From assembly GCF_051903065.1 (NCBI RefSeq), contig NZ_CP178438.1: a stretch of 64,000 nucleotides of DNA; one strand, 5' to 3'. This DNA is from Escherichia coli (GTDB lineage: Bacteria > Pseudomonadota > Gammaproteobacteria > Enterobacterales > Enterobacteriaceae). Positions 17,374 through 18,983 of the stretch are shown here, piece after piece (the first letter of the stretch is position 1; each line of letters opens with the position of its first letter). The notes beneath the pieces were generated by a model. The model was not told the DNA's origin and searched no databases. It saw only the letters and a program-made list of their open reading frames with translations. Both the position numbers and the translations under genes were made by a program.

Positions 17374-17928
17374 ATGCTTATTGGCTATGTACGTGTGTCA
17401 ACAAATGACCAGAACACAGATCTACAACGTAATGCGCTGAACTGTGCAGGATGCGAGCTGATTTTTGAAGACAAGATAAGCGGTACAAAGTCCGAAAGGC
17501 CGGGACTGAAAAAACTGCTCAGGACATTATCGGCAGGTGACACTCTGGTTGTCTGGAAGCTGGATCGGCTAGGGCGTAGTATGCGGCATCTGGTCATTCT
17601 GGTTGAGGAGTTGCGCGAACGTGGCGTTAATTTTCGCAGCCTGACGGATGCTATTGATACCAGCACACCGATGGGGCGTTTTTTCTTTCATGTGATGGGT
17701 GCCCTGGCTGAAATGGAACGAGAACTGATTGTTGAACGAACAAAAGCTGGACTGGAAGCTGCTCGCGCACAGGGACGAATTGGTGGACGTCGTCCCAAAC
17801 TTACACCAGAACAATGGGCGCAGGCCGGGCGATTAATTGCATCAGGCGTTCCTCGCCAGAAGGTGGCGATCATCTATGATGTTGGTATATCGACACTGTA
17901 TAAGAAGTTTCCGGTCGGAGATAAATGA
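17374..17928 (+). CDS. site-specific DNA invertase, serine recombinase (Pin/Gin/Hin family)
   Basis: N-terminus MLIGYVRVSTNDQNTDLQ with catalytic Ser; AGGGAG RBS; C-terminal HTH; located beside the invertible segment. Confidence 0.9.
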   Translation: MLIGYVRVSTNDQNTDLQRNALNCAGCELIFEDKISGTKSERPGLKKLLRTLSAGDTLVVWKLDRLGRSMRHLVILVEELRERGVNFRSLTDAIDTSTPMGRFFFHVMGALAEMERELIVERTKAGLEAARAQGRIGGRRPKLTPEQWAQAGRLIASGVPRQKVAIIYDVGISTLYKKFPVGDK

Positions 17929-17966
17929 AACCGTAGCACGTCGTATGCAAGATCGTGCTGCGGTTT
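17928..17966. repeat. hairpin-forming repeat A (13-bp arms, 13-nt loop), probable terminator-like element
   Basis: AAACCGTAGCACG-N13-CGTGCTGCGGTTT directly after invertase stop; imperfect direct copy at 18947-18983. Confidence 0.5.
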
Positions 17967-17985
17967 ATGCTTATCACTTAAAGAC

Positions 17986-18759
17986 TCAAAAATTAGGTGA
18001 GTAACGGACCGGGGACATAGCTCCTTTTTTTCTTAATTCATCTGGTATTTTTTTTCCAAGATAAAGATTTGCTATTTCAGGTGGGGCTTCTCGGCCTTCA
18101 AAACCATAGCGAGAACTTTGTGTTGCCTCAAAGTCAGGATCCTCGTCCCAGTATTTCATCGTAGGGAAATTTTCACGTGTTGATTTGAGCCATTTATCAG
18201 CAATGAAAACCCCCCGAACGATTCCCCTTACAGTAGCAAGAATAACTTCTGCTTGGCTGGCGCGAGAGACATTAATGCGCCAGCTAAATCGAACCGCATC
18301 ATAAAGCTCTGAATCCTTTGCACTTCTGTTAACGGAAATCATTAATGCTTTATGATGAAATGTTATGGTTTCGGGTTGATATGTTGCTATCAACTCTTTG
18401 ACATGCGCGGCGCCGAATTCATTGCTGCCAGCACCATTCATGATATTCGTTAACCCAGGGTAGGCATCAATAAGTGCAGCTTCAACTTCGTACGCCGTCT
18501 TTTCATCAGTCATTCCGTGTCGATGGATGACATGGATAACTTCAAGTCCTGCTAACCTTATTTCTCTAATTTGCTTTAGCTTGTTGCTCAGTAACTCGTC
18601 ATCATCAGTCGCTGCCACTTCACCGCGCATATGGGCAAATACGCGGTTACCTTTGCCTTTCCCTACATAGAAGGTGCTTCCGTCCCTCGGATCAATCAAT
18701 CGGTATACATACCAGCCAAGGTGTTCAATTACTCCAGAAGGAAACTCAGTAATATCCAT
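17986..18759 (-). CDS. GIY-YIG nuclease-domain protein (about 257 aa) with uncharacterised C-terminal domain
   Basis: N-terminus contains WYVYRL...[14 protein letters not shown] (GIY/YIG, Arg, His) then Glu and Asn about 50-65 residues later; ATG at 18759 chosen over upstream TTG. Confidence 0.6.
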
Positions 18760-18946
18760 TTTGCAATATCTATGAATTATTTGTGAGACGTATATTAATG
18801 AACATTGCAAGGGCTCACAACCAGTAGTGTTGAGAAAACTATCGGGTAAATGAGGCTAATCCTTTGAATTTACATAGTAAAAAAGATACTTTTCCTCATA
18901 GTGTGAGCTAATTTTATGTTTCGTTTGATGATCGGACCGGTCTCAA

Positions 18947-18983
18947 AAACCGCAGGCACGTTGTATGCAAGAACGTGCTGTGG
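18947..18983. repeat. repeat B, degenerate copy of repeat A
   Basis: AAACCGCAGGCACGTTGTATGCAAGAACGTGCTGTGG; about 36 of 41 positions match repeat A by hand alignment. Confidence 0.45.

Follow-up and report, generated by a model that had tools for sequence, protein, structure and literature searches.

In the 64,000-nucleotide (nt) stretch of Escherichia coli contig NZ_CP178438.1 (assembly GCF_051903065.1) analysed here, referred to below as the window, a gene encoding a GIY-YIG nuclease lies near the end of a prophage, between two copies of a short hairpin-forming repeat, designated A and B. Repeat A separates this gene from the serine DNA invertase gene pin, with which it converges, and repeat B opens a conserved non-coding stretch that leads towards a retron. 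The features of the segment are as follows.

17374-17928, plus strand: pin, serine DNA invertase, the last gene of the tail-fibre/late block (open reading frame (ORF) list, RefSeq annotation of an identical region as pinE, and resolvase/invertase family matches)
17928-17966, plus strand: hairpin repeat A, with left arm AAACCGTAGCACG at 17928-17940 and right arm CGTGCTGCGGTTT at 17954-17966
17986-18759, minus strand: GIY-YIG nuclease gene of the PD-T4-3 family, 257 amino acids (PADLOC and Pfam matches)
18760-18946, minus strand: upstream non-coding part of the cassette, which travels with the GIY-YIG gene
18947-18983, plus strand: hairpin repeat B, with a bulged G, one G·U pair and a T-run on the minus strand only (TTTTTGAG)
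18984-19042, plus strand: conserved core after hairpin B, ending in the hexamers TTGAAT (19014-19019) and GATTTT (19037-19042) at a spacing of 17 nt
19043-19141, plus strand: "type I" leader, common to lambda (24250-24352), phi458 and many prophages; the cargo beyond it varies by locus
19319-21306, plus strand: retron of the Ec67 family, in the second cargo slot, with an a1/a2 inverted repeat (19319-19330 / 19440-19451) and a reverse transcriptase (RT)-Toprim gene (19471-21306)

The preliminary description of the window had reported two directly oriented repeats at these positions, with 13-bp arms in A, and this was confirmed. The 13-bp stem of A includes one U·G pair, its first base (17928) is overlapped by the pin stop codon TGA (17926-17928), and the GIY-YIG stop codon (17986-17988) lies 20 nt to its right. 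Hairpin B is located upstream of the GIY-YIG gene, 188 nt from its ATG (18759), where about 190 bp had been estimated. When A and B were aligned in direct orientation, an ungapped core of 28 nt gave 25 matches, and with a single-base indel 33 of 40 aligned columns were identical; the similarity described earlier was therefore genuine, but the count given for it (36 of 41) was slightly too high. When up to three mismatches were allowed, a degenerate core of 25 nt occurred in the 64 kb only at A and B, and not at all in 100 shuffles. Likewise, an unfiltered search of the window with a covariance model built from 22 distinct hairpin copies of the family recovered only A and B, at 58.4 and 67.0 bits.

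Cassettes between and after the hairpins

Two copies of the stem-loop probably flank the nuclease gene because this stem-loop is the usual junction at which accessory genes are gained and lost in lambda-like prophages. When window positions 17300-19500 were compared by megablast with 5,426 complete E. coli genomes, homology broke off at 17928, 17962-17968, 18930-18947, 18952-18955, 18968, and 19129-19149; homology to other genomes thus started or stopped at the hairpins. The occupied arrangement (pin, A, GIY-YIG gene, B) was found in 595 genomes, and 343 genomes carried an empty site in which the 3' end of pin, a single hairpin, and the downstream module were contiguous (for example, loci L003 and L130). 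This is the comparison with gene-less relatives that the preliminary description had proposed, and it supports the idea that the GIY-YIG gene is a cassette at a pre-existing intergenic hairpin: in the relatives without the gene, pin is separated from the downstream module by one hybrid hairpin, and HK97 also has a single copy. At base level, the stem of the empty-site hairpin was matched (CCGTAG...CTACG or CCGCAG...CTGCGG). The left half of A resembles this hairpin, and its left arm, of the CCGTAG type, is joined to a cassette-specific right half (GATCGTGCTGCGGTTTATGC), which accounts for the U·G pair. The left arm of B (CCGCAGGCACGTT) occurs at the opposite end of the gene in a diverged PD-T4-3 cassette (L009). 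In other contexts, homology to the PD-T4-3 cassette extended from 17928 up to 18952-18968; the cassette had four left contexts (pin, the lambdoid tfa gene, and two other sequences) and three right contexts, with a hairpin at every junction.

Six distinct cassettes were found between hairpins, listed here by the length of the spacer.

986-988 nt: PD-T4-3 cassette
1016 nt: methyltransferase-like gene and a duplicated tfa 3' end
1555 nt: lambda ea47
1738 nt: helix-turn-helix (HTH) protein and ImmA/IrrE-like protease
2636 nt: ImmA/HTH and a Bro-like gene
4134-4137 nt: PD-T4-3 and a type II methylase/endonuclease pair, with the junction in the hairpin loop (between GTATGC and GTTAATT)

The 1016-nt cassette was the commonest two-hairpin cassette (L016/L017 and about 28 other IMG/VR loci; for example, L017 10807-11890). 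Its minus strand encodes an S-adenosylmethionine-methyltransferase-like protein of 222 amino acids, and it also contains the 3' end of tfa (89 codons) as a duplicate. Its first hairpin has the loop CTTAAGCAAGA, which defines the Rfam family CssrB.

At least 18 cargo classes followed the leader, and in 14 of 18 classes the first gene past the type I leader was on the plus strand. These classes included a PD-T7-1-like protein, a PD-T4-6-like kinase, the retron of the window, a trypsin-like protease akin to the effector domains of retron and Lamassu systems, and many proteins without a PADLOC match. Since defence genes are among this cargo, the locus is a defence and accessory hotspot with at least two slots in series, both of which are filled in the window. 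In a spread sample of the matches, no genome carried this retron without PD-T4-3, although the retron junction was present in only eight genomes. The GIY-YIG cassette has the properties of a moron or hotspot cassette: a GC content of 0.41 against approximately 0.5, presence or absence at a fixed place, and varied alternatives at that place.

The same organisation was recognised in the b region of lambda. The first lambda copy (about 22573-22606, 58.3 bits) lies 16 nt past the tfa stop codon and the second (about 24162-24195, 69.9 bits) is in the same orientation, with the minus-strand gene ea47 between them. Lambda therefore resembles the window in the stem-loop family, in the direct orientation of the copies, in the site right after tfa, and in the minus-strand accessory gene enclosed. 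Its second copy is also followed by the same core and leader, and lambda 24162-24352 is 80% identical to window 18950-19141. The two differ in cargo, which is ea47 in lambda and PD-T4-3 in the window, in the loop of the first lambda copy, which has diverged (GTATGAAAT), and in the genes after the leader, which are the minus-strand genes ea31-ea59 in lambda and the retron in the window. In HK97, the only copy (20939-20987) separates tfa from the sib/attP/int module. Although HK97 has no invertase gene, a relic of the last pin codons (GGGAGATAAATGA) stands right before its hairpin (L005 3925-3945; HK97 about 20924-20944), indicating a pin-carrying ancestor at this junction.

The preliminary description had also considered the repeats consistent with homing-endonuclease-like mobility, in which the GIY-YIG protein would cut an allele with a single hairpin and copy itself in. 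Phage homing endonucleases do use the GIY-YIG fold, and the gene is polymorphic for presence and absence at one site; nevertheless, we consider this explanation extremely improbable. The protein matched the PADLOC profile PD-T4-3 (PDLC04031) with an E-value of 2.4e-140, residues 1-256 aligning with profile positions 1-255 of 256, and it matched the Pfam domain LEM-3_GIY-YIG with an E-value of 3.6e-14. PD-T4-3 is a single-gene defence system obtained by functional selection in E. coli (PMC9519451), which protects a clinical isolate and K-12 against T-even-type phages (bioRxiv 10.1101/2024.12.20.629700). The full-length profile match, together with the reported activity of the family, argues for a defence gene and does not point to homing; protection was shown for family members, and the allele in the window is a PD-T4-3 defence gene as judged by its sequence. 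Furthermore, both flanks are complete duplicated hairpins, not the halves of a split target that would be expected around a homing gene. The same pair of hairpins also encloses non-nuclease cargo (lambda ea47, the methyltransferase-like gene, and the HTH/ImmA pairs) as well as a type II restriction-modification pair, and the cassette is lost and rearranged through recombination in the core. Lambda, with ea47 between its two copies, has both repeats in the absence of a GIY-YIG gene, an arrangement that the preliminary description had itself named as refuting its proposal.

The hairpin and core as a unit

The repeats are part of a unit in which a stem-loop of 35-40 bp opens a conserved non-coding stretch of approximately 100 bp. 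A 101-nt query consisting of hairpin and core was found in 5408 of the 5426 complete E. coli genomes, at a median of 3 and a maximum of 12 places. In lambdoid and e14-like prophages, the hairpin was located directly after the last late gene (tfa or pin), 0-20 nt past its stop codon. Hairpin B with approximately 160 nt of following sequence matched HK97, HK629/630, phi458, and many Stx phages (190 phage-collection records), and an exact-pattern scan of IMG/VR gave about 120 loci. The covariance model scored family members (lambda, HK97, and IMG/VR loci) at 49-75 bits. Prophage loci contained one, two, or three hairpin copies, and in all 51 multi-copy loci the copies were exclusively direct.

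Both ends of the unit are sharply defined. On the left, at least 11 unrelated sequences adjoin the stem within 0-3 nt, and on the right the unit ends at GATTTTAC. To the right of the hairpin, nearly always the same sequence of approximately 65 nt was found (GGCTGGTGAACTTCCGATAGTGCGAGTATTGAATGATTTCCAGCCGTTATCGATTTTAC), and this was followed by at least five alternatives, including the type I leader (lambda and the window), two int-proximal sequences, and the sib region of HK97. Across the family the hairpin stem was 95% paired; one pair alternated among C-G, U-A, and U-G, and another among A-U, G-C, and G-U. In diverged PD-T4-3 cassettes, the hairpin was more conserved than the adjoining cassette sequence.

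A core-anchored scan of 100,044 species representatives gave only Escherichia and chance hits, by means of an exact degenerate pattern that diverged relatives could escape. Literature searches on the sequence itself, on lambda b-region terminators, and on lambdoid hotspots yielded no description of the unit, with older papers on terminators of the lambda b2 region lying outside their scope. In Rfam, no family covered the core or the leader, and the terminal stem-loop of CssrB was the sole match.

Several other identities were considered for the unit. A coding function of the core was rejected: its variable sites were spread evenly over the codon phases (11/13/15), without codon periodicity, and the minus-strand ORFs over it (window 18943-19092, 49 amino acids; lambda, 63 amino acids) differed in their starts and stops. 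In many genomes, RefSeq/PGAP annotates 81 nt of the hairpin and core as an incomplete "capsid" or "nucleocapsid protein" pseudogene (L003 5650-5730; L002 9193-9273); given the lack of codon periodicity, these calls are probably annotation artefacts. The core also contains GCTGGTGA (18987-18994), which agrees with Chi (GCTGGTGG) at seven of eight positions and is oriented like the late genes. Lambda likewise has a 7/8 match at about 24203-24210, and a perfect Chi occurs in a few family members (for example, L061). However, the Chi-like position is among the most variable and shows no sign of selection, so the resemblance is probably due to chance, and a Chi function was not retained. Membership in the REP/BIME or MITE classes was also rejected, with two copies in 64 kb and a median of three per genome, always direct and always at tail-fibre or att (attachment site) ends of prophages.

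In the Qin prophage of a K-12 derivative (L129 3995-4100), the unit stands between ynfT and a truncated ydfJ, its left arm decayed (CCGCAGACACACC) and its core intact with TTGAAT and GATTTT. In a variant of hairpin A, three nucleotides are inserted in the loop (GTATGCAAGAAGATCG versus GTATGCAAGATCG; L008 1252-1302, L012, L028, L040, L045, L048, and L082), and this variant reads like an overlap of two loop types (AAGAA and AGATCG).

Recombination between units

Individual hairpins are mosaics of left and right halves, and the history of one such unit can be read in the window. Loci of the L028 type contain three hairpins in the following order: pin, HP1, PD-T4-3, HP2 with its core, the 2636-nt cassette, an arm of approximately 110 nt, 23 nt of the 3' end of ssrA (reverse complement), HP3 with its core and the type I leader, and cargo. 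The B unit of the window is identical to HP2 of L028 and its core up to the invariant TTGAATGAT, and from there it follows the core of HP3 and the leader. The switch from HP2 to HP3 at TTGAATGAT shows that the window derives from such an array by exchange between direct copies of the core. Two units of an array with three hairpins thus recombined to give the B unit; the crossover fell within the invariant part of the core, and about 2.7 kb, including the att core, was lost in the event. The crossover lies 60 nt from the hairpin, which repeat-mediated homologous recombination explains and a site-specific exchange at a single point does not.

The 23-nt segment in this array is a common left neighbour of the hairpin: TGGTGGAGCTGGCGGGAGTTGAA, when reverse-complemented, is identical to the final 23 nt of E. 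coli ssrA (L002 9150-9172; also L008, L029, L044, L075, and L115). In L030 (6760-7122), the same phage arm adjoins a complete transfer-messenger RNA (tmRNA) gene, indicating that this phage family integrates at ssrA. The L028 form accordingly shows the attP-intact order, and the att core of an ssrA-integrating phage family is fused directly to the base of the hairpin. The hairpin base GAAACCGCAGCC (also given as TGAAACCGCAGCC) resembles the continuation of ssrA, GAACCCGCGTCC. Behind differing cargo, the ssrA fragment is preceded by approximately 110 nt of conserved non-coding sequence, GAGCCGCGGCTCCTTTGCGTATCC...CCAATCATGATTGG, with a 14-bp perfect palindrome at its end (L002 9020-9150; L029, L035, L075, and L086); this arm is presumably a phage att arm.

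These observations bear on the possibility that site-specific recombination takes place at the hairpin itself, which would be either attC-like or a secondary attachment site; circles would enter there by means of a recombinase and leave two direct hybrid hairpins. Single cassettes between direct repeats would be produced in this way, A and B look like left and right hybrids of a "target" and a "cassette" hairpin, and most hairpin copies have a bulged base. Also in keeping with it are the exact joining, seen in one common context, of the left hairpin base to the final 23 nt of ssrA, the integration of that phage at the real tmRNA gene in L030, and the similarity of GAACCCGCGTCC to the hairpin base. 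However, no dedicated recombinase accompanies the repeats: some phages have pin next to them, lambda and HK97 have nothing of the kind, and elsewhere various integrases are found. The junctions are scattered over the stem base, the left arm, the loop, a few nucleotides past the stem, and, as described above, the core, at a distance of 60 nt. The repeats lack the integron R' box GTTRRRY, the orientation of the cargo is mixed, and the pix sites of the neighbouring invertase are located elsewhere (15392-15411 and 17293-17312). We therefore regard this explanation as distinctly unlikely.

Integron attC arrays resemble the window in having direct imperfect palindromes with a bulged base between single-gene cassettes, but the window repeats have no IntI, attI, Pc, or GTTRRRY, their crossovers do not fall at one point, and each cargo is oriented independently and is presumably transcribed from promoters of its own. 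An attC site was rejected, with GTTRRRY in neither A nor B, the serine invertase pin as the neighbouring recombinase, and no integrase of the attC type beside the lambda and HK97 copies. An ix site of the Hin/Gin/Pin type was rejected as well: the AAACC and GGTTT arms are 27 nt apart, whereas two 12-bp half-sites 2 bp apart would be needed, and many family members lack AAACC (GCCGCAG...). A Xer/dif-like site was dismissed on inspection, the spacing being wrong and the sequence unlike.

A broader proposal combines several of these elements, namely that the hairpin and core form a dedicated portable junction, a terminator-plus-promoter insulator whose base is also a secondary att site for ssrA-type integrases, so that integron-like serial defence arrays would be built in lambdoid and e14-like prophages by site-specific and short-homology recombination. 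We mention it as a speculative possibility and would be surprised if it proved correct.

Probable boundary function of the unit, and its surroundings

The explanation that we favour, and consider probable without being confident of it, is that A and B are copies of a stem-loop that ends the late block and that such copies serve as terminator-type boundaries and homology anchors of an accessory hotspot, the cassettes of which are swapped by homologous recombination. Cassettes would be gained, lost, and exchanged by recombination of the RecA or the phage Red/RecET type, for which about 40 bp would be enough. The hairpin/core units would thus act as portable homology, and the direct repeats would be the footprint of the exchange. 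At the RNA level, the hairpins would be terminators or 3'-end barriers that insulate the cassette. Hairpin A would stop both convergent transcripts, those of pin and PD-T4-3, and hairpin B would stop leftward read-through ahead of the PD-T4-3 promoter. The core after B would provide a sigma-70-like promoter reading rightward via the conserved leader into the next cargo, in this case the retron.

The sequence next to the stems and the predicted folds were compared with those of intrinsic terminators. Among the 8 nt adjoining the stem, T occupied five positions on the plus strand and six on the minus strand of A, and two and five positions, respectively, in B; hairpin A, being T-rich on both sides, therefore resembles a bidirectional terminator. 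The predicted folding energy of A was -25.4 kcal/mol (z -6.0) on the plus strand and -19.7 kcal/mol (z -5.3) on the minus strand, and that of B was -17.4 kcal/mol (z -1.2) and -14.9 kcal/mol (z -2.0), respectively. Structure prediction, which the preliminary description had suggested as a check, thus upheld a strong fold on both strands for A, but a weaker one for B. The stable G+C-rich stem-loop of an intrinsic terminator is present in A, with B reaching a z of only -1.2. Among 46 hairpin variants, the plus-strand fold was the more stable in 44; the U·G and G·U variants favour the plus strand as the strand of folding, but a common variant with a terminal C·A pair speaks for the minus strand. 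The 3' stem-loop of CssrB (RF02799), a small RNA of Shigella flexneri, is a variant of the hairpin with the loop CUUAAGCAAGA, and it stands after tfa in many lambdoid prophages. However, the window matches only the terminal approximately 40 positions of CssrB, scoring 32.4 bits where the gathering score is 76; CssrB itself is therefore not present in the window. The suggestion, already made in the preliminary description as an alternative, that the hairpin is a reused regulatory or termination module is supported in outline.

The end of the core points to a promoter. Among 49 distinct variants, TTGAAT was invariant, the 17-nt spacer varied at nine positions without indels, and GATTTT was nearly invariant, with conservation ending two bases past it. 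This pattern is consistent with the signature of a putative sigma-70 promoter producing a locus-specific transcript. From the hexamers at 19014-19019 and 19037-19042, transcription is predicted to start near 19049, which leaves about 270 nt to the retron msr.

A number of observations weigh against this explanation. Most copies of the hairpin lack a U-tract, which was present on the plus strand in 9 and on the minus strand in 20 of the 46 variants, and a simple consensus terminator scan of the window called neither A nor B. By energy alone, the fold of B is not separable from that of shuffled sequence, its z being only -1.2 on the plus strand. The CssrB RNA was seen by Northern blotting as a transcript of approximately 180 nt, but its 3' end was only predicted, by TransTermHP. 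Late transcripts would be antiterminated anyway, which counts against a canonical terminator. As for the promoter, the -10-like hexamer GATTTT is weak, and in lambda and phi458 minus-strand genes follow the leader. The covariation in the hairpin is thin because its copies are closely related, and, given the confinement of the unit to Escherichia among the species representatives scanned, its conservation may reflect youth and gene conversion and not selection. Finally, cassette exchange by homologous recombination is inferred from the mosaic structure.

Some of the same observations suit a simpler account, in which the repeats, without a function of their own, are young relics duplicated when related prophages crossed over unequally, and have stayed alike through recent descent and gene conversion. 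The restriction of the repeats to Escherichia, the fold of B, which is no better than shuffles, the Qin copy with its decayed stem, and the weak covariation are all compatible with it, and the duplication in the 1016-nt cassette includes the 3' part of tfa, as unequal exchange predicts. Against it, at least 11 unrelated contexts share one identical, sharp left end, and the right end is sharp at GATTTTAC. The better conservation of the hairpin than of the neighbouring sequence in diverged PD-T4-3 cassettes, its position within 20 nt of the stop codon of the last late gene, and the finding that only pairing-compatible recombinant stems (U·G and G·U) are common also count against it. We therefore consider this account unlikely, although it deserves to be taken seriously.

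A boundary stem-loop of this type can be placed among known forms of phage organisation. The comparison of the HK97 and HK022 genomes reportedly gave rise to the moron concept, in which an accessory transcription unit, complete with a promoter and terminator of its own, is inserted between phage genes. The GIY-YIG cassette resembles a moron in being a low-GC accessory gene (0.41 against approximately 0.5), present or absent between conserved phage blocks and bounded by a stem-loop. It differs in that the terminator of a moron is normally private, whereas the stem-loop in the window is one conserved sequence that is reused at several junctions and then followed by the core. The hotspots of P2-like phages and P4-like satellites (PMC9122126, PMC9519451) are similar in having highly variable anti-phage systems at a fixed prophage position. 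They differ in that the phages considered here are lambdoid and e14-like, the boundaries are short non-coding repeats in place of conserved genes, and several slots are arranged in series. Lambdoid morons and the P2/P4 hotspots are the nearest published descriptions, and the tfa-ea47-ea31 region of lambda is the nearest concrete relative. The feature is thus a known kind of organisation, the modular exchange of moron or defence cassettes at conserved boundary sequences.

The remaining features around the cassette are listed below.

13471-14529: J-like gene, upstream structural end of the prophage
14520-15104: ymfQ-like gene, upstream structural end of the prophage
15392-15411 and 17293-17312: 20-nt inverted repeat (AAACCTTGGTTTGGGGGAAG / CTTCTCCCAAACCAACGTTT) at the edges of the invertible tail-fibre segment
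21366-22063: IS1 (InsA/InsB ORFs), 60 nt past the retron RT gene
22383-24116: betA, after IS1

The structural end of the prophage upstream of pin consists of Mu/e14-like baseplate genes. In the invertible segment of 1.9 kb, fibre tips and assembly genes are present in alternative versions that lie on opposite strands, and the 20-nt inverted repeats at its edges are presumed to be the pix crossover sites of the adjacent pin. From approximately 0.5 in the structural genes, the GC content falls to 0.41-0.44 across the GIY-YIG cassette, with still lower values (0.34-0.38) for the retron. In strain 2014C-3075 (L001 12397-13594), which is 100% identical to the window over 17300-19500, an integrase remnant and yagU/ykgJ/ecp come after the retron. 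In the window, an IS1-associated deletion appears to have removed the prophage end together with about 20 kb of chromosome.

The unit, a non-coding sequence of approximately 100 bp present in nearly all E. coli genomes and in lambda, is a landmark for exchangeable cargo in lambdoid and e14-like prophages. Besides many uncharacterised genes, this cargo includes validated defence systems (PD-T4-3, retrons, and PD-T7-1-like and PD-T4-6-like proteins). Genes located between units or directly after them are therefore a cheap source of defence candidates, complementing the gene-bounded hotspots of P2 and P4. For annotation, the recurrent 81-nt "capsid protein" pseudogene calls are accounted for as probable artefacts over a non-coding element. 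The unit is also a concrete case of the short boundary sequences that have long been proposed to drive the modular evolution of phages, and one such event is directly readable in the window.

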